From the NCBI GenBank assembly GCA_964422065.1, contig CAYQZW010000001.1, forward strand, positions 1-58,413: 58,413 nt of DNA. Direction: 5' to 3'. Below are positions 2,828-18,363 of the stretch, piece after piece. Source of the DNA: an uncultured bacterium (GTDB lineage Bacteria; Hydrothermota; Hydrothermia; WGAB01). Numbering within the stretch: the first letter of the stretch is position 1; each line of letters starts with the position of its first letter. The position numbers and the translations under genes were made by a program. Below the pieces are notes generated by a model. It had not been told where the DNA came from, searched no databases, and worked only from the letters and a program-made list of their open reading frames with translations.

Positions 2828-4075
2828 TCAGGCACGCTTCTTTCGACGGCCACGGATGAACCGGGGCAAGGTCCCGTTCCGGACCGTGTCCCCATCCACA
2901 ACGATCTCCACGACGTTCTTCATGGACGGGACCCGGAACATCGTTTCCATGAGGAGATCTTCCAGGATAGCGCGGAGTCCCCGTGCACCGGTCCCCCTCT
3001 GGATCGCAATCTCTGCGATGGTCTCCAGCGCGTCCTGGGTCACGGTCAGCCGGATGCCCTCCATCTCGAAGTAGTGGGTGTATTGCTTGATCAGGGCGCG
3101 TTTCGGCTCGACCAGGATCCGGACCAGGTGCTCCTTGTTCAGCGGATGGAGCGTCGCGACAACCGGGAATCGCCCCACGAATTCTGGCAAGAAGCCGTAC
3201 TTGATCAAGTCCTCGGGCTGGACCGGGAGCACCTCAGCCTCTTTGGGTTGGGTGTCTTCATTGCCCAGGGTTGTGGCAAAACCCAGGCGGTTCCGGCCTA
3301 ACCGGGCCTTGACGATCTCCTCCAGGCCGGAGAACGTGCCTCCACAGATGAACAGGATGTTGGTCGTGTCAATCTGGATAAAGGGCTGTTCCGGGTGCTT
3401 CCGGCCGCCTTGGGGCGGCACATTGGCAACGGTGCCCTCCAGAATCTTGAGGAGCGCCTGTTGGACCCCTTCACCGGAAACGTCGCGGGTGATGGATGGC
3501 GAATCGCTACGGCGTGCGAGTTTGTCGATCTCGTCAATATAGACAATGCCCATCTGGGCGCGCTCGACGTCATAGTCTGCCACCTGCAGGAGCCGGACCA
3601 GGATGTTCTCGACATCCTCGCCCACATAGCCAGCCTCTGTCAGGGGCGTGGCGTCATAGATGGCGAACGGGACCTTCAGAAACTCGGCGAGGGTCCGCGC
3701 GAGCAGGGTTTTGCCGGTGCCCGTAGGGCCGATCAGCAGGATGTTCGCCTTCTCAAGTTTGAGGTCTTTGTTCTTCTGGCTCAGCCGCTTGTAGTGGTTA
3801 TAGACCGCGACGGACAAGACCTTTTTTGCCCATTCCTGGCCGATCACGTGCTTGTCCAGGTACGCCTTGATCTCCTCCGGCGGTGGGGGACTCAAAATGG
3901 AGACTTCCCGGCTCAGGATGTGCTCTTCCTGCAGGATGTCCCACGCGATCTTTACGCAGTCGGAGCAGATATACGCGTCTGCACCGGAGATCAGGCGGTT
4001 GACCTCGCTCGCCGTCCGATTGCAAAAGGAACACTTGGGCTCTTGTTTACCGGCTGCCTTTTTCTTTTGTGCCAT
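2828..4075 (-). CDS. clpX: Clp protease ATP-binding subunit ClpX
   Basis: Zinc ribbon [17 protein letters not shown] and Walker A GPTGTGKT. Start set at MAQKKK (ATG 4075), which follows AAGGAG by 9 nt. The longer ORF start at 4186 lies inside clpP. Confidence 0.95.
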
Positions 4076-4679
4076 GTTTCGGGATCTCCTTTCGGCTTGT
4101 GATGACATCGTCAATGATGCCGTATTCCTTTGCTTCCTCTGCGGACATGAAGAAGTTCCGGTCGGTATCCTTCTCGATCTGTTCAATGGGTCTGCCGGTA
4201 TGTTTGGCCAGGATCTCGTTGAGGATATTGCGGAGCCGCATGATCTCGCGGGCGTGGATATCGATATCGACGGCCTGGCCCTGGACCCCGCCCCACGGCT
4301 GGTGGATCATCACGCGGGAATGGGGCAATGCGAACCGCTTGCCCGGGGTCCCAGCGGCCAGCAAAACCGCCGCCATAGACGCCGCCAGCCCCACACAGAT
4401 GGTGGAGACGTCCGGCTTGATGTACTGGATCGTGTCGTAGACCGCGAGGCCTGCGGTGATGACGCCACCCGGCGAATTGATGTACACATAGATGTCCTTC
4501 TCCGGGTCCTCGGCCTCCAGAAAGAGCAGTTGGGCGATCACCAGGTTCGCCACGTGGTCATTGATCTCCGTGCCAATGAACACGATCCGGTCCTTGAGGA
4601 GCCGCGAATAGATGTCGTACACCCGCTCCCCACGGCCGGTCTGCTCAATGACATACGGTACGTATTGTCCCTTCATCAC
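4047..4679 (-). CDS. clpP: ATP-dependent Clp protease proteolytic subunit
   Basis: 210 aa with [13 protein letters not shown], active-site Ser context GLAASMAA and His context VMIHQP. Confidence 0.95.
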
Positions 4680-12809: not shown

Positions 12810-13973
12810 TTATTTGTCGGGAGGGGGTGTTTTCTGGATGGCGGGAAAGCCCGGCTGAAGGGTGAACGCCATCCCCAGATCGGAGAATCGGCCCACCTGG
12901 ACCGAGGGAGGGAGGGGTTTCTCAGTCGTCAGCCATTCCGCAAGCCATTGCATCATTCCGGGCGCACGCATGATGCCTGCGCCGTTGAAGCCTGCCGCAA
13001 GGACCAGACCTTCGGTCCCAGGGTACGGCCCCAGGAGCGGCACTTGGTCCGGAGTCCCTGCAAGGAGACCGGCCCATCCCTGCCCCAAAGTGGCCCTGGA
13101 AGACAATCGGGGGAGGAAGGTGCTCAGGGTTTCAGAGACGTGCTCATAGAACTCCGGGTCTGCTCCCTCCTTGTACCCGTCCGGATCTTGCGGAGTGAGT
13201 TGGGTCCCATTGCCCACAATCCATCGCGCAGGTTGTTCCGGCACGAGGTAGACGCCGGAATCCAGATCGTAGAGCGCCGGTCCTTCCAGGGTATCGCACT
13301 GTAAACTTCCGGCCTGGGCGCGGTAAGGGACCAGGGGCAGGGGCAGGCCCAGCCACTCCTTCAGGCGTTTGGCGGTCCACACCCCCATAGAGAGCACCAC
13401 CCAATCTGCCCGGACCTTTTCTTTGTCCTCCACGACCACGCCCACCACCCGTCCACGCTCGGTCCACAGCCCGGTGACCTTCTCTAAGAGCCGGACCGGC
13501 GTACCTGTATGGCGGAAATAGGTATAGAGGGCATAGCCGACGGCATAGGGGTTGACGTAACCGTCCTCCGCGCAGTAGGTGGAGCCGAGGATACCCAGGA
13601 TGCCATCCGGCAACTGCGGGCCAGGGCCGTCGTAGAACTCCACGGGGACCCCTCCATCTCTCTGGATGCGGTAGGCCTCATGGAGCGCTTCCAGGGCTTC
13701 TGGGGATCGTGCCAGCCAGGCCAGGCCGGTCCGTCGATACCGGAAAATCCCCCCAGACTTTTCCTGTACGGTCTGGTAGAAGGCGATGGAACCGCGGACG
13801 GCCAGGATATCCAAGGGCTTCCGCAATTGAAGTGTAACGATCCCGGCCGCTTTGGCCGAGCTTCCGCCGACCAAGTTGGCCTGGTCAAAGAACACCACCT
13901 CCACCCCCGCTTGCTTGAGGAAGTAGCCCAAGGAAAGGCCGGTGATGCCGGTGCCGACGATAGCGACCTTCAT
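12810..13973 (-). CDS. FAD-dependent oxidoreductase (DAO family)
   Basis: N-terminal dinucleotide fold KVAIVGTGITGLSLGYFL...FFDQ. Length and C-terminal pattern resemble sarcosine/glycine-oxidase-type enzymes. Confidence 0.8.
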   Translation of the reverse strand: MKVAIVGTGITGLSLGYFLKQAGVEVVFFDQANLVGGSSAKAAGIVTLQLRKPLDILAVRGSIAFYQTVQEKSGGIFRYRRTGLAWLARSPEALEALHEAYRIQRDGGVPVEFYDGPGPQLPDGILGILGSTYCAEDGYVNPYAVGYALYTYFRHTGTPVRLLEKVTGLWTERGRVVGVVVEDKEKVRADWVVLSMGVWTAKRLKEWLGLPLPLVPYRAQAGSLQCDTLEGPALYDLDSGVYLVPEQPARWIVGNGTQLTPQDPDGYKEGADPEFYEHVSETLSTFLPRLSSRATLGQGWAGLLAGTPDQVPLLGPYPGTEGLVLAAGFNGAGIMRAPGMMQWLAEWLTTEKPLPPSVQVGRFSDLGMAFTLQPGFPAIQKTPPPDK

Positions 13974-15331
13974 GAGGAAGGCAACCCGACGGCCATCTGG
14001 CGGGTTCGGTTGAGCATCTGGCGCCGCGCCAGGGCCAGCAGCCGGATCCGGGTTTTCTGAAGGGCCTTGTGCCGGTACTCCCGGGTTGCGTCTGTTGAGC
14101 CGGGGTGCCGGCGATAGTTGTACAGGACCCGATGAACGCGAAGGATCCGGAAATGTTCTGAGATCCGTAAGACCATATCGTAATCTTCGCCGTAATCGCC
14201 AAAGGACTTCTCATTGAAGGGGCCCAGGACTTCAAAGACCCGTTTTCGGAAGAACCGGAGTGCACCGGCCCCATCCACCCGGAGGATATTGTTCCGATCA
14301 AATTCAAGGTGGGTGACCGGGGCCAGGGGTACGGGTTGGCCATCCGGGTCCACGATGCGATAATACGAGATGGCCAGGCCGGCGTCCGGATTCCGCTCCA
14401 TGGTCTCCACCATTGCCTCCAGGGTCTCGGGCTCGTAGAAGTCATCGGAATCCAACTGAGCAATGTATTTCCCTCGGGCATGACGAATTCCGAAGTTAAT
14501 GGCCTCGGCGATATTGCCTGGGGGCTTGGAGACCAGCCGGACGCGGGGGTCACGGCGCTGGAATTGCCGGACGATCTCCGGGGTCTGGTCGGTGGACCCA
14601 GCGTCCACCACCACAATCTCAAAGTCCTGGAAGGTCTGTTTCAGCACACTCTCCAGGGCTTCTCCGATGTAATCTTGTCGGTTCCGGACGGGGATGACGA
14701 CGGAGACCGTTACGGGATAGGTCTGGGGGTCGGGCAGGGACTCATAGGTGCCGTCCAGGAGTGCTCCGCGCCGTCGGAGCATGGCTTTGAAGACCTGTTC
14801 GTATTCGCGTTCCGCGGCCTTGCCGTAGAAGAGGTAGTCAAAACTGTCGGAGAACGTGTATCGGTGGCGAGGGTCCTCCTGCAGATCGACACGATAAAGG
14901 GGCTCGGGGATATGTACCGCATACCATCCGTGCTCCTGGAACCGCAATCGGAGATCATAAAGCCAGGCATACCGAAGCGGTCGGACTCCACCCACGGCGT
15001 CCACGGCCTGTCGCCGGAGAAGGAAGACCTGTCCCAATTTGAACCGCTCCGTGATATCCCCGATGTCTTCCACCAGGGGCTGGACGGTGCCCTCTTCTTC
15101 GTAGTCGGAGAAGACCAGTGCACCAGGGGTTGTGGCAAATTTGGAAACCGCATGGGGGAAGAGCCGGACCAGTGGGGATTGGACAACGAGGAGATCGTAA
15201 GGGACTTCTTGGAGGAGTTGCCAGAGGAACGAGGGGGATGCGGGGTCCACAAACAGGACCCGATCCACGCTGGGGTCGCTGGGAGGCTCCCAGGAGCCCT
15301 GGAACAAGCAGACCAAGGTCACCCGGTTCAT
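13970..15331 (-). CDS. family 2 glycosyltransferase with an extra ~190-aa N-terminal domain
   Basis: GT-A core VSVVIPVRNRQDYIGEALESVLKQTFQDFEIVVVDAGSTD...AQLDSDD. 4-nt overlaps with both neighbouring genes. Confidence 0.8.
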   Translation of the reverse strand: MNRVTLVCLFQGSWEPPSDPSVDRVLFVDPASPSFLWQLLQEVPYDLLVVQSPLVRLFPHAVSKFATTPGALVFSDYEEEGTVQPLVEDIGDITERFKLGQVFLLRRQAVDAVGGVRPLRYAWLYDLRLRFQEHGWYAVHIPEPLYRVDLQEDPRHRYTFSDSFDYLFYGKAAEREYEQVFKAMLRRRGALLDGTYESLPDPQTYPVTVSVVIPVRNRQDYIGEALESVLKQTFQDFEIVVVDAGSTDQTPEIVRQFQRRDPRVRLVSKPPGNIAEAINFGIRHARGKYIAQLDSDDFYEPETLEAMVETMERNPDAGLAISYYRIVDPDGQPVPLAPVTHLEFDRNNILRVDGAGALRFFRKRVFEVLGPFNEKSFGDYGEDYDMVLRISEHFRILRVHRVLYNYRRHPGSTDATREYRHKALQKTRIRLLALARRQMLNRTRQMAVGLPSS

Positions 15332-15675
15332 GGCCGATAATACACAGAGAACCTTGGGGATTCCCAGAGGACCACGCCGATGAGCCGGTAATTCGGGCCG
15401 TGGAGCAGGGGTTCAAGGATCTCAAAGATCGCCCTTGCGATGTGTTCGGCGGTCGGGTTGTCAAAAAAGGCGTTCAGGTTCTTGCCGTGGAACCGCTGGA
15501 CCACATGCTCCTGAAGGATCCGGTCCACGTATAAGAAGTCCACAACGATATCGGGATTGGGGGTGCCCTCAAGGATCACCTCGCCACGAAAGCGGTGACG
15601 ATGGGTTTCCTCCCGGACCCCTTGGATCCGGACGGAATGTTCCGCGCGAAAACTGAACTGGACCCGAAGTTCCAT
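15328..15675 (-). CDS. PTPS/QueD-fold protein, divergent (catalytic Cys absent)
   Basis: FSFRAEH...THRHRF...VDF pattern of 6-pyruvoyl-tetrahydropterin/6-carboxytetrahydropterin synthases. ATG 15675 lies 4 nt after the archease TAG; the ORF-track start at 15690 is a TTG inside archease. Confidence 0.7.
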   Translation of the reverse strand: MELRVQFSFRAEHSVRIQGVREETHRHRFRGEVILEGTPNPDIVVDFLYVDRILQEHVVQRFHGKNLNAFFDNPTAEHIARAIFEILEPLLHGPNYRLIGVVLWESPRFSVYYRP

Positions 15676-15679
15676 GGTG

Positions 15680-16099
15680 CTACACGTCAAAGATGACCCG
15701 GGCGTACCAACCGTGCTCCCGTTTTTCGATCTGGAGCATGTGGTAGGTGACGGCCTTAATGCCCAGACGGACCCGATGCTTTTCGGGGTTCAGAGACTCT
15801 CCTTGTGCGGTGCCGGAAAGCATGAAGAGGTTGGGATCGACCTGCACAGAGAGGACTCTGGGGATAAACCCTTCGGCGTCAAAGTAAAACAGGAGTTCGG
15901 AGAGGAAGCCGAGGAAGAGGTCCTCAAGGCTGTGTTCCTGAAGGGACAGGGGCTTGGTGATTCGTGGCTGGACCTCGGAGAAGTTTTCGATCATCTCCTG
16001 GAACATGGCGAGCCCGGCCTCTTCAAAGAGGCCGTCGAGCGTTTTGGACTCCACCTCAATCCCAATGTCGCCTGTGTGATCTAAAACCCTATAGGTCAT
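15680..16099 (-). CDS. archease
   Basis: 139 aa with the hallmark N-terminal LDHTGDIGIEV, KAVTYHML and C-terminal ARVIFDV. Confidence 0.85.
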   Translation of the reverse strand: MTYRVLDHTGDIGIEVESKTLDGLFEEAGLAMFQEMIENFSEVQPRITKPLSLQEHSLEDLFLGFLSELLFYFDAEGFIPRVLSVQVDPNLFMLSGTAQGESLNPEKHRVRLGIKAVTYHMLQIEKREHGWYARVIFDV

Positions 16100-16177
16100 C
16101 GTCGGTGTTTTTCAGGGTTACCCCTGATCCAACCCATTGCCGATGCCATCCGTGGTGAAAGCCTCTGGAACGGCGTA

Positions 16178-16206
16178 AGTATAAGGCCCACCCAAAAATC
16201 CTTCAA
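16178..16206 (-). promoter_or_regulatory. sigma70-like promoter TTGAAG-17-TATACT upstream of archease
   Basis: Minus strand reads TTGAAG (16206-16201), 17 nt, TATACT (16183-16178), about 78 nt before the archease ATG. Confidence 0.4.
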
Positions 16207-16267: not shown

Positions 16268-17902
16268 TCAAGGGATCCAGAGTTTCAAGACCCGGTGATT
16301 GACCCGGAGGAAATACACGCCCCTCGAGGAAGGCTGATCGAGGGGAAGCACAATGGTGCCACGGGAAAGAGAAAGGGACCGGGCCCACAGCAAACGACCA
16401 GCAAGATCGTAGAGGGAGAGGCTGATCTTTTGAGGATGGGACAGTGTCAAGGTGAGGATAGGCCGCCCATGAGCATACTCCACAGAATACGCCGGTGGGA
16501 GAACGGACGTTGGACCTCTTTCCGCAACACTGACCGGGGGATTGAAGCCATAAATCCCGGAATTCCAAAGGTCATGGGCATATTGCCCCCAGGGCACCAT
16601 CGCAGAGTCAAAGGGCGCAGGAAGGTCAAAGACATAAATGATCATTGTATCCTGCATCATCACCGGATTACCAAGGGATAACACAGCCATTTCCAAGAGT
16701 CCGTCATTGTCGAGGTCGTCAATAAGAGGTGTACCAATTGTAGTCCCATACACTGAGACTGGCCAACCGTCGGGTTCTGAGCCATCGAGCCTATAAGCAT
16801 GCCATACACTCAAACTATCTTGGGTAAAGTGTCTTCCAATGACAACTTCTAACTGTCCGTCTCCATCCACATCTGCTATTGCAGGTTCACCCCCAATCAA
16901 CAATCCGTCATCTGGTATTTGCAAGTAAGATCCATCTCTCTTAATGATGACAAAATCAAAAATTCCATCGATTATAGCTTCTAATTGGCCATCATGATCA
17001 ATGTCTGCAATTGCAGGAGGGGCGTGGAAATCTTCATCCGGTATTTTGATTGGGAATCCATAAAGTTCTGTACCATCATATTTAAAGACATGAAAAAAAG
17101 CAGTATCTGATGTTCCTGGAGCTAAATTTGTTGGAAGAAGAATTTCAAAGGTATCGTCTTGGTCAAAGTCCGCAATTACTGGGGTAAGCCCATATATGAT
17201 ATTATTTAGATTAAAAACAACCGGAAAACCTGGCAGGAACGAATGTGTGTCTAAATCCCACACACCAAGAGCAGGTAATGAATCCTGCATAAATAATCCT
17301 ATTATTTCGGGAACACCGTCGTTATTTAAATCTCCCGCTATCATTCTGGTGTATATTGGGTTATTAAGAGGTTCCCAGTTGGGATATATTGAGCCATCGC
17401 CATTAAGGATTAATTGGTGACTGTGAACAAGAATTTCTGCGTCACCGTTATGATCAAGGTCACTTAAGGTGACAGGATATCTAACTCCGATCCCATAAGG
17501 AAGTAAATAGGGGAATCCGCTTGCTGATTCTCCACCAATATCATTTGAATAAACATTGGCCTGTGAAAATCCAGATATGGGTTTGTTGCCGAAAATAATG
17601 TACGGAGAATTGTTAGCCAGAATATTACCTATACCTACCGACTGCTGTGATGTTAAATTAGGCTGTTGGTACACGATTGGATAGCCAAAGATATTCTCGC
17701 CATTAATCCGGAATCCGTGCAATGAGAAAAATAAGGAGTTTCCTGTCACTACAAAAATTTCTTTATTTCTATCACCGTCAAAATCAAATGCCTTCAGACC
17801 ACCGTAAAACTCTATCCACGAACTACTTTGAACATATATTGGCCAGCCCGGTCTTACTTGAGGAGGTGTCAATATCAATAATATATATAAAAAATTCAAC
17901 AC
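16268..17902 (-). CDS. FG-GAP/VCBS-repeat beta-propeller protein with T9SS C-terminal sorting domain
   Basis: About seven DxDxDG-type repeats (FDFDGDRNKEI, DLDHNGDAEIL, DLNNDGVPEI, ADFDQDDTFEI, ADIDHDGQLEA, ADVDGDGQLEV, DDLDNDGLLEM). C-terminus SLSLYDLAGRLL...GVYFLRVNHRVLKLWIP is Por-tail-like. GTG/TTG start with no SD. Confidence 0.8.
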   Translation of the reverse strand: MLNFLYILLILTPPQVRPGWPIYVQSSSWIEFYGGLKAFDFDGDRNKEIFVVTGNSLFFSLHGFRINGENIFGYPIVYQQPNLTSQQSVGIGNILANNSPYIIFGNKPISGFSQANVYSNDIGGESASGFPYLLPYGIGVRYPVTLSDLDHNGDAEILVHSHQLILNGDGSIYPNWEPLNNPIYTRMIAGDLNNDGVPEIIGLFMQDSLPALGVWDLDTHSFLPGFPVVFNLNNIIYGLTPVIADFDQDDTFEILLPTNLAPGTSDTAFFHVFKYDGTELYGFPIKIPDEDFHAPPAIADIDHDGQLEAIIDGIFDFVIIKRDGSYLQIPDDGLLIGGEPAIADVDGDGQLEVVIGRHFTQDSLSVWHAYRLDGSEPDGWPVSVYGTTIGTPLIDDLDNDGLLEMAVLSLGNPVMMQDTMIIYVFDLPAPFDSAMVPWGQYAHDLWNSGIYGFNPPVSVAERGPTSVLPPAYSVEYAHGRPILTLTLSHPQKISLSLYDLAGRLLWARSLSLSRGTIVLPLDQPSSRGVYFLRVNHRVLKLWIP

Positions 17903-17914
17903 AGTTCTTGTTTA

Positions 17915-17950
17915 TTGGGGGGAGGGAAACTGCAGTTTCCCTCCCCCCAA
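17915..17950. repeat. perfect 36-nt palindrome (18-bp stem): TTGGGGGGAGGGAAACTG/CAGTTTCCCTCCCCCCAA
   Basis: Read directly from the sequence. It lies 7 nt after the stop of the small upstream gene and 12 nt before the FG-GAP gene start. No U-tract follows it on the minus strand. Confidence 0.9.
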
Positions 17951-17957
17951 TTTCTCC

Positions 17958-18329
17958 CTACCACTGGTCAGGATGGATATCTACATTTTTTGGAGGACTA
18001 ACAGGTCCGGTACCACTCGTTGCATTAGGTGCATATGCTAAATAGAACCTTTTGTACTGACATCCAAGACACATGTACAGTTCATAACTCCCATCGGGAT
18101 TTATAGCAGCAGGGCCATAGACCTCACTTGGGTCATCCACGTTAGTCGCCCAAACGTATCCGTCTGTCTTTAGTTTCCCGTTAATATCGTAGGCGTAGCC
18201 CCAGAACTTTGGTGCCTCTTGCGGATTATCTGCATGGGCAATTCTAGGCGTGATGCCCACAAGCCCGATGATGACAAGGGCTCCTATCAGAACACCCAGC
18301 ACCCTTTTGTTTTTTAGATACGTCCTCAT
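17958..18329 (-). CDS. small secreted protein of unknown function
   Basis: Signal peptide KRVLGVLIGALVIIGLVGITPRIAHA. GGAGGTG lies 6 nt before ATG 18329. AT-rich codon usage. No family recognised. Confidence 0.6.
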   Translation of the reverse strand: MRTYLKNKRVLGVLIGALVIIGLVGITPRIAHADNPQEAPKFWGYAYDINGKLKTDGYVWATNVDDPSEVYGPAAINPDGSYELYMCLGCQYKRFYLAYAPNATSGTGPVSPPKNVDIHPDQW

Positions 18330-18363
18330 CACGCACCTCCCACATTTTGGCTTTGATGATCCC

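Follow-up and report, generated by a model that had tools for sequence, protein, structure and literature searches.

A four-gene string headed by archease in a WOR-3 bacterium, including a probable PTPS-III-type protein

Gene content and junctions of the locus

The window, meaning the whole stretch of 58,413 nucleotides that was analysed, comes from a MAG of the WOR-3 phylum (G000; 88% complete). Gene calls and Pfam matches identify four open reading frames at the locus, all on the minus strand. These encode archease, a PTPS-fold protein, a GT2 glycosyltransferase, and a DAO-type FAD oxidoreductase (Table 1). The sequence, read directly, places a 4-nt gap between the archease TAG and the PTPS-fold ATG, at position 15675. 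The remaining junctions are ATGA overlaps, at 15328–15331 (PTPS-fold/GT2) and 13970–13973 (GT2/DAO). Hence, the original prediction of four co-directional genes, joined by one 4-nt gap and two 4-nt overlaps, is correct. The length of 116 amino acids given there for the PTPS-fold protein should read 115.

Table 1. Features of the locus, with positions in the window
Feature	Position	Strand	Evidence or note
Sigma-70-like promoter match, TTGAAG-17-TATACT	16178..16206	-	9/12 consensus matches; 79 nt upstream of archease ATG
Archease, 139 aa	15680..16099	-	PF01951, E 2.3e-39
PTPS/QueD T-fold family protein, probable PTPS-III type, 115 aa	15328..15675	-	PF01242, E 1.6e-18
GT2, whole gene	13970..15331	-	PF00535, E 9.1e-40
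GT2 N-terminal domain, aa 1-205, degenerate GT-A-like	14717..15331	-	Foldseek; no Pfam match
GT2 catalytic (GT-A) domain, DSDD motif, basic C-terminal helix	13970..14716	-	PF00535
DAO-family FAD-dependent amine oxidoreductase, 387 aa	12810..13973	-	PF01266, E 1.2e-49

Tight coupling of the genes had been taken as the sign of a shared pathway. However, the 4-nt overlap is the commonest gene junction across this genome. In a crude ORF set, it is found exactly in 130 of 785 same-strand neighbour pairs, and 48% of such pairs are spaced by 10 nt or less. We conclude that tight coupling of the four genes is not above chance. The proposed promoter is present as a sequence match, but three such sites occur in the 4-kb region, where 0.9 are expected. 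Hence, this is weak promoter evidence and a consensus match only. The archease leader had no Rfam match, so no riboswitch was found upstream, and its predicted folding is not unusual (z -0.17). Compared with the same-genus genome G088, purifying selection is evident in each of the four genes, with dN/dS values between 0.06 and 0.09 (archease, 0.06; GT2, 0.08; PTPS-fold protein, 0.09).

The PTPS-fold protein and the missing FolB step

We aligned the PTPS-fold protein with E. coli QueD and with the genome's own canonical PTPS. The three Zn-binding residues (His16, His31, and His33) and the pterin-binding Glu110 are retained. Conversely, Arg occupies the position of Cys27, and His-Gly replaces Asp70-His71. 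The earlier assignment of these residues, made by eye, is therefore upheld by alignment, and canonical Cys-dependent QueD/PTPS chemistry is out. What had been missed is the Glu beside the Arg. In the motif R-E-E-T-H-R-H, this Glu is at -3 relative to the first residue of the His pair, and R-E-x-x-H-x-H resembles the published PTPS-III signature. The QueD signature is CxxxHGH, while that of PTPS-III is ExxHGH (PMC5041015), and the PTPS-III Glu replaces or accompanies the Cys (PMC5615194). P. vivax PTPS entries in the PDB are labelled 'E37A/E37C catalytic residue mutant'. Cys is absent and the PTPS-III Glu present in 46 of the 136 nearest representatives. Hence, the absence of Cys, presented as an oddity in the original prediction, is not mysterious in itself once the neighbouring Glu is taken as pointing to a PTPS-III FolB bypass.

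Comparison with known proteins points the same way. The best solved relative is PH0634 (PDB 2dj6; E 9.8e-14), which has the motif WEDVHGH, and the predicted model (pLDDT 89) matches 2dj6 with a Foldseek TM of 0.85. As in PTPS-III proteins generally (COG0720, from Plasmodium and diverse bacteria, with the archaeal PH0634 solved as 2dj6 and 2dtt), there is a T-fold, three Zn His residues, and the pterin-binding Glu, and the QueD Cys gives way to a Glu at -3 from the His pair. The window protein differs from these relatives in having HRH, Arg at the Cys position, His-Gly for Asp-His, and archease ahead of it. E. coli QueD (PTPS-I; PDB 4ntk) shares the fold, size, and Zn site (Foldseek TM of about 0.8). 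However, the window protein lacks the catalytic Cys and departs from CxxxHGH. It scores 39.6 bits with the TIGR03367 QueD model (cut-off 89.25), and both the QueD and PTPS equivalog models are far under cut-off. We rejected a queuosine role, because there is no Cys and no queC. As originally noted, the window contains neither queC nor queE, and the only queC candidate in the genome is a weak, partial PP-loop match to the QueC model (23.8 bits; positions 1–61 of 210). Tgt is present in the genome.

Note that the protein is not a typical PTPS-III. The residue between the two His residues is Arg or, in the Logan contig L009 (REDHHTH), Thr, rather than the Gly of ExxHGH; other Cys-less, Glu-bearing homologues also vary here. 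The Asp-His dyad is kept in PH0634 and in the orthologues of families f2 to f4, but lost in the window protein. Since HGH has become HRH, and the dyad is gone, activity of the window protein could have changed. The PTPS-like proteins of its own family, f1, share the derived changes REExHRH and WESPR(F/Y)SV. Searching for homologues of the PTPS-like protein by word matching returned just two near-identical proteins.

The genomic context is that of a folate pathway with a hole. FolB is found in none of the 64 genomes of the class, FolK in 60, and a PTPS-family gene in 63, being the sole copy in families f2 and f3. The search for que and fol genes elsewhere in the source genome, advised by the original prediction, recovered FolE, FolK, and FolP; neither FolB nor FolE2 was found in this 88% complete MAG. 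A FolB-less genome with FolE, FolK, and FolP is a further likeness to PTPS-III systems. So too is the position of the gene, since in sister families the orthologous site belongs to a FolE2(-FolP-FolK) cluster. A second locus, on contig C16 of the same genome, encodes FolE, a double PTPS (CxxxHGH and CxxxxxHGH), and a short-chain reductase. The double PTPS lacks the PTPS-III Glu, and we found no FolB substitute other than the PTPS-like protein.

With the Cys and the Asp-His dyad all replaced, and scores far below the equivalog cut-offs, the protein might instead be a dead, pterin- or metal-binding pseudoenzyme, leaving the FolB step to another enzyme. We think this quite unlikely. The Zn His triad, the PTPS-III Glu, and Glu110 are conserved, dN/dS is 0.09, and the double PTPS encoded on C16, without its Glu, offers no substitute. 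Our analysis of motif and context suggests that the protein is a probable Cys-less, Glu-bearing PTPS-III type, serving as a FolB bypass in folate synthesis.

Archease, RtcB, and the pterin genes

Archease is known to assist RtcB as well as a tRNA m5C methyltransferase from archaea. The window archease is full length (PF01951 positions 1–136 of 136), with an N-terminal DHTGD motif, and RtcB is absent from both the window, as originally stated, and the source MAG. The wider picture is different. Archease is found in 251 of 272 genomes of the phylum and RtcB in 248, including all four other genomes of family f1 (G088–G091). Both are missing from six genomes (genera g22, g23, and g25) that are 91–99% complete, and in G020 the two genes are directly adjacent. 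The distribution of archease follows that of RtcB, not that of PTPS or FolE2. The contig that carries RtcB in G088 has no orthologous counterpart in the source assembly, where its flanks find only paralogue-level matches (44–51% identity); this fits an assembly gap or a deletion. Given that the MAG is 88% complete, and that RtcB is so widespread in the phylum and the family, an assembly gap is the probable cause. Hence, an 'archease without RtcB', as originally proposed, is probably an effect of viewing one window of an incomplete MAG. Full-length archease, phylum-wide co-occurrence, and the adjacency in G020 are all as in the archease-RtcB system for RNA ligation and repair. The difference is that in this class RtcB lies apart from archease, which at this locus stands instead at the head of a pterin/folate gene pair.

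This linkage extends beyond family f1. Archease and PTPS genes are adjacent in families f1, f2, f3, f4, f10, and f11, and the pair is followed by FolE2 in f3, f4, and f11. FolP comes after FolE2 in G034, with a FolK match just beyond on the same strand. In f12, FolE2 directly adjoins archease. Altogether, archease is linked directly to PTPS and/or FolE2 in 7 of the 12 families of the class. Archease-PTPS is the only old, conserved pair within the four genes. Note that in the PTPS tree, built from short proteins, archease-adjacent genes from different families do not group together and the deep nodes are unresolved, so orthology rests on synteny. An AU test marginally rejected a single clade for all archease-adjacent PTPS copies (p 0.033), but is not clean, since unlabelled database representatives may be archease-adjacent genes themselves. 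Scans of further contigs added, from genomes, a single close relative plus a canonical PTPS-FolE2 locus that is unrelated, and, from metagenomes, eight loci, only two of them informative.

One reading of the linkage is that, in this WOR-3 class, archease serves a second client, a GTP- or metal-dependent pterin enzyme (FolE2 or PTPS-III). More than one client enzyme of archease is known in general, the linkage persists while archease identity falls to 29%, and the junctions are frequently overlapping. However, the seven linked families all fall within a single class, and shared inheritance of the gene order would suffice to account for the linkage. Furthermore, 18 archease loci sampled elsewhere in the phylum (f5, f7–f9, and 14 families outside the class) have no adjacent pterin gene, archease follows RtcB rather than PTPS or FolE2, and our literature search found no link of archease to PTPS, FolE2, other pterin genes, or a glycosyltransferase. 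A second client is, on balance, improbable.

The glycosyltransferase, the flavoenzyme, and the origin of the string

The extra N-terminal domain ascribed to GT2 is real, in that PF00535 covers only residues 210–368, and residues 1–205 matched no Pfam family. The motifs QLDSDD and GEDYD are invariant across nine orthologues. Among PDB sequences, the best match is the GlcA-transferase domain of K4CP (E 1.8e-35), which resembles the GT2 C-terminal domain. The full-length model (pLDDT 84.6) aligns with K4CP, an enzyme with two GT-A domains, over 515–532 columns (Foldseek E 3.7e-26), and this top match spans both domains. Tandem GT-A-like domains are thus shared with two-GT-A synthases (E. coli K4CP, PDB 2z86; Pasteurella heparosan synthase). 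However, GT2 is shorter by about 230 residues and has one, not two, GT-A domains bearing a DXD motif. In distant orthologues (L051–L053), BLASTP aligns the N-domain region with the GT2 catalytic domain (E 1.8e-8 to 5e-11). A direct hhalign comparison of the two domains is weak (E 0.0034; probability 9.6%) and aligns QSPL with DSDD. Since it lacks both a DXD motif and a Pfam match, the N-domain is probably non-catalytic.

The DAO protein matches PF01266 over its full length and has an N-terminal GxGxxG FAD motif (VAIVGTGITG), as do ThiO, sarcosine oxidase, and the FAD domain of dimethylglycine dehydrogenase. It differs in having no folate-binding C-terminal domain. Its closest relatives of known structure are dimethylglycine dehydrogenase, sarcosine oxidase, and glycine oxidase (E 3e-21 to 4e-16), and the protein falls under every equivalog cut-off. 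We rejected assignment as ThiO. The score with the ThiO model is 103.6 bits (cut-off 250.8), and the genome yields only weak, partial matches to ThiG models (31.6 and 23.4 bits). With no true ThiG, a ThiO role is unlikely.

The four-gene order does recur in relatives: it is found in f1, the metagenome loci L007, L008, and L062, and the Logan contig L009. Nevertheless, the neighbours of GT2 and DAO vary. A GT2 orthologue is encoded by 34 of 272 genomes of the phylum, and adjoins archease-PTPS only in f1 and three closely similar metagenome or Logan contigs. At 14 other GT2 loci the neighbours are variable, and none of archease, PTPS, and DAO lies closer than about 6 kb. Orthologues in seven other families, with catalytic domains 50–58% identical, lie in unrelated contexts. 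Clear DAO orthologues are confined to families f1 and f10. The gene is adjacent in G000, G088, G090, G091, and L009, but detached by 3–5 kb in G089, L007, and L008. Such unrelated GT2 contexts and variable DAO adjacency count against the single pathway originally envisaged, making a pterin- or deazapurine-glycoside or a nucleic-acid modification.

A related idea is that the f1 PTPS-like protein has been neofunctionalised and acts, with GT2 and DAO, on a pterin-derived molecule, such as a glycosylated biopterin-type pterin. The four genes do stand together in G000, G088, G090, G091, and L009, the C16 cluster could make a biopterin-type pterin, and the derived f1 motifs are under purifying selection. 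We regard this as unlikely, because GT2 orthologues occur in seven families away from all three partners and DAO is detached at three loci. Moreover, f1 genomes would be left with no candidate for the FolB step, despite FolK and FolP, and Cys-less, Glu-bearing homologues have often lost Asp-His (only 8 of 46 keep it). Taken together, a pterin/folate role of archease behind the linkage, or a glycosylated pterin-type compound made by the f1 PTPS-like protein, GT2, and DAO, seems doubtful.

We favour, with a probability of about 0.6, a probably co-transcribed, lineage-specific gene string serving different processes, in which the PTPS is a probable FolB bypass. Archease would act in its usual capacity, as cofactor of the RNA ligase RtcB, which relatives encode elsewhere. 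The PTPS-fold protein would convert dihydroneopterin triphosphate to 6-hydroxymethyl-dihydropterin, as motif and context suggest, and so take the place of FolB in a folate pathway whose other enzymes include FolE, FolK, and FolP. GT2, a single-copy gene in part of the phylum, would be a peripheral-membrane glycosyltransferase whose duplicated GT-A domain is dead, and DAO is a putative amine oxidase or dehydrogenase. The ancestral unit was probably archease-PTPS(-FolE2). In family f1, FolE2 would then have been lost, and GT2, usually with DAO, placed behind the archease-PTPS pair. Against this reading, archease-PTPS-GT2 is kept across two genera and L009, despite N-domain identity as low as 43% and differing flanks. 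The arrangement in family f1 may therefore have some selective reason.

What is new is a conserved linkage of archease to PTPS and/or FolE2 across seven families of one class. Two leads follow: archease heading pterin/folate genes in those families, and a conserved glycosyltransferase with a degenerate, duplicated GT-A domain. For the organisms themselves, the PTPS-like protein is a candidate, proposed from sequence, to fill the FolB hole throughout this class of uncultured WOR-3 bacteria.

Arrangement of the four genes

The four open reading frames run head to tail, and none of the encoded proteins reaches an NCBIfam equivalog cut-off. The sequence observation behind the original prediction was confirmed. 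The archease TAG is followed, after 4 nt, by the ATG at 15675, ATGA overlaps are found at 15328-31 and 13970-73, and a promoter-like TTGAAG-17-TATACT sequence is present at 16206-16178. The archease leader has no Rfam match, and its fold is not unusual. For all four genes, comparison with a genome of the same genus gave dN/dS values of 0.06-0.09, indicating purifying selection.

The four-gene string: positions in the window and Pfam matches
Gene	Positions	Strand	Pfam match	Protein length
Archease	15680-16099	minus	PF01951, E 2.3e-39, full length	
PTPS-fold protein	15328-15675	minus	PF01242, E 1.6e-18	115 aa
GT2	13970-15331	minus	PF00535, E 9.1e-40, spanning aa 210-368 only	453 aa
DAO-type FAD oxidoreductase	12810-13973	minus	PF01266, E 1.2e-49	387 aa

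The organism is a member of candidate phylum WOR-3, and among public contigs, WFXO01000067 ('candidate division WOR-3 bacterium') is nearest to it. Its metagenome-assembled genome comprises 130 contigs (1.64 Mb, 88% complete). We used a crude set of open reading frames from this whole genome, yielding 785 same-strand neighbour pairs, to place the junctions in context. An overlap of exactly 4 nt, by far the commonest spacing, occurs in 130 pairs, and 48% of pairs are spaced by 10 nt or less. Since tight junctions are commonplace, coupling of the four genes says little about shared function.

Directly upstream of the operon is a low-GC stretch (16268-18332), containing an FG-GAP repeat protein gene (PF13517) and a small upstream gene. 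GC content is 0.45 between 16001 and 18000, compared with approximately 0.59-0.63 in the flanks. The same-genus genome has different genes at this position. On its upstream side, the conserved block ends at this stretch.

Neighbourhoods of the glycosyltransferase and oxidoreductase

A single-copy GT2 orthologue that includes the N-terminal domain was found in 34 of 272 genomes, and these represent eight families. Among genomes, GT2 adjoins archease-PTPS only in the window's family (G000, the window's own genome, and G088-G091). The order archease-PTPS-GT2 also occurs in three metagenome loci (L007, L008 and L062) and a Logan contig (L009). At 14 loci, from seven other families, GT2 neighbours vary by family, and archease, PTPS and DAO genes are all absent over a distance of about 6 kb. 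One further GT2 locus is flanked by GAPDH and an HhH-GPD gene.

The best match to the GT2 model (pLDDT 84.6) is K4CP, a chondroitin polymerase with two GT-A domains, over 515-532 columns. At the sequence level, the catalytic domain resembles the GlcA-transferase domain of K4CP (E 1.8e-35). The N-domain of distant orthologues can still be matched to the GT2 domain (BLASTP E 1.8e-8 to 5e-11). In the window's family, the two halves are weakly similar (hhalign E 0.0034) and QSPL occupies the DXD position. Together, these observations make a degenerate GT-A duplicate, without catalytic function, the best reading of the extra domain.

Clear DAO orthologues were found in two families only, the window's own and f10. 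The gene abuts GT2 in G000, G088, G090, G091 and L009. In G089, L007 and L008 the two genes are 3-5 kb apart, with DAO downstream of an inserted SPW gene and of a two-component system; there, era and a radical-SAM gene come after DAO. Among solved structures, dimethylglycine dehydrogenase, sarcosine oxidase and glycine oxidase are the closest relatives. The enzyme is unlikely to act as ThiO, because the ThiO score is below cut-off and no ThiG was found in the window's own genome.

Active site of the PTPS-fold protein

We aligned the PTPS-fold protein with E. coli QueD and the canonical PTPS of its own genome. The pterin-binding Glu and three Zn-ligand His residues are kept. Conversely, Cys27 is replaced by Arg, and Asp70-His71 by His-Gly. 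Note that Glu directly follows the Arg at the Cys site (R-E-E-T-H-R-H). Published subfamily signatures are CxxxHGH for QueD/PTPS-I, CxxxxxHGH for PTPS-II and ExxHGH for PTPS-III (PMC5041015). The closest solved relative, Pyrococcus PH0634 (2dj6/2dtt; sequence E 9.8e-14), has the motif WEDVHGH, and its structure matches the window protein's model (pLDDT 89) with a TM score of 0.85. PDB entries for P. vivax PTPS are titled 'E37A/E37C catalytic residue mutant'.

An exhaustive HMMER search with the window protein returned 435 proteins at E <= 0.001, among which only one cluster is at least 50% identical to it. We aligned 136 proteins from among the best 150 matches; 61 have Cys only, 20 have Cys and Glu, and 46 have Glu without Cys. 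In this last group, just 8 keep Asp-His, and the residue between the His pair varies (G, E, R, T, W and others). Hence, the oddities of the window protein are typical of a broad class of proteins that lack Cys and bear Glu, rather than unique.

Archease, PTPS and the folate pathway

RtcB was not found in the window's own assembly. Across the phylum, 248 of 272 species genomes encode RtcB and 251 encode archease; both are missing from six high-quality genomes, which represent three genera. RtcB is encoded in each of G088-G091 (94-100% complete), the four remaining genomes of the window's family, always on a different contig from archease. In the window's assembly, no contig is orthologous to the one that carries RtcB in G088. 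The simplest reading is that archease is a normal RtcB cofactor, with rtcB unlinked and, in this genome, unassembled. While the two genes are unlinked in the window's class, G020, from family f15 of the same phylum, has the classical pair, with RtcB immediately after archease (L085, contig G020:C139, 4071-5912). In a sister genus, a reverse gyrase gene (zf_Rg, DEAD, Toprim and Topoisom_bac domains) is directly upstream of archease (L007/L008 1718-5212, L043 109-3258), indicating a thermophilic lineage.

Archease and PTPS genes adjoin, and often overlap, in six families, with archease identity as low as 29%.

Residues of archease-adjacent PTPS proteins, by family
Family	Motif	Asp-His
f2	CExxHGH (published I/III hybrid motif)	kept
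f3	SExxHGH	kept
f4	PExxHGH	kept
f11	FExxHGH	Asp kept, His replaced (DR/DK)
f10	RExxHGH or EExxHAH	lost
f1 (window's family)	RExxHRH	lost

FolE2 follows the pair in f3, f4 and f11, CTP synthase follows it in f10, and in f12 FolE2 is directly after archease. Archease heads pterin or folate genes in seven families of one class. No adjacent pterin gene was found at 18 archease loci sampled elsewhere in the phylum (f5, f7-f9 and 14 families outside the class). A tree of the short PTPS proteins resolved only family-level clades, and a single clade of all archease-adjacent copies was marginally rejected (AU test, p 0.033). Across families, the case for orthology is therefore positional rather than phylogenetic.

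G034 (f3) has the order archease-PTPS-FolE2-FolP, and just beyond it a same-strand FolK match. This HPPK match (L036, contig G034:C91, ~3897-4622, minus strand) starts before the first ATG/GTG/TTG in its reading frame and directly adjoins the end of folP. The cause would be a non-canonical start, a frameshift, or a sequencing error that splits a folP-folK fusion. In f12, the HPPK domain is in open frames of 309-353 aa (e.g. G082:C17:31654-32034 and G085:C2:335759-336139), compared with ~160-190 aa in the rest of the class. A fusion of FolK with a further domain may exist here, which might bear on hydroxymethyl-dihydropterin synthesis in these FolB-less genomes.

The window's own genome encodes FolE (contig C16), FolK and FolP; neither FolB nor FolE2 was found. 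Tgt is present, and the QueC-model match is weak and partial only. On C16 (L001:3-1971, minus strand), a 305-aa protein with two PTPS domains precedes FolE (GTP cyclohydrolase IA) and a short-chain dehydrogenase/reductase. Its N-domain has KCVHIHGH (CxxxHGH, PTPS-I type) and its C-domain KCNNPKSHGH (CxxxxxHGH, PTPS-II type). This arrangement, in a genome without queC, resembles a cluster for a biopterin-type pterin. Among 64 genomes of the class, 60 have FolK, 63 have a PTPS-family gene and none has FolB. Genomes of f2 and f3 have no PTPS-family gene other than the one beside archease.

The original prediction proposed one new pathway for all four genes, which our data do not support. There is a small probability that the derived PTPS-like protein of the window's family, with its HRH motif and lost Asp-His, has a new role with the family-specific neighbours. 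The best-supported reading is a family-specific gene string, apparently built upon an older archease-PTPS-III(-FolE2) unit. Judging from its motif and genomic context, the PTPS-like protein of the window would then act in the folate pathway, as a putative FolB bypass.
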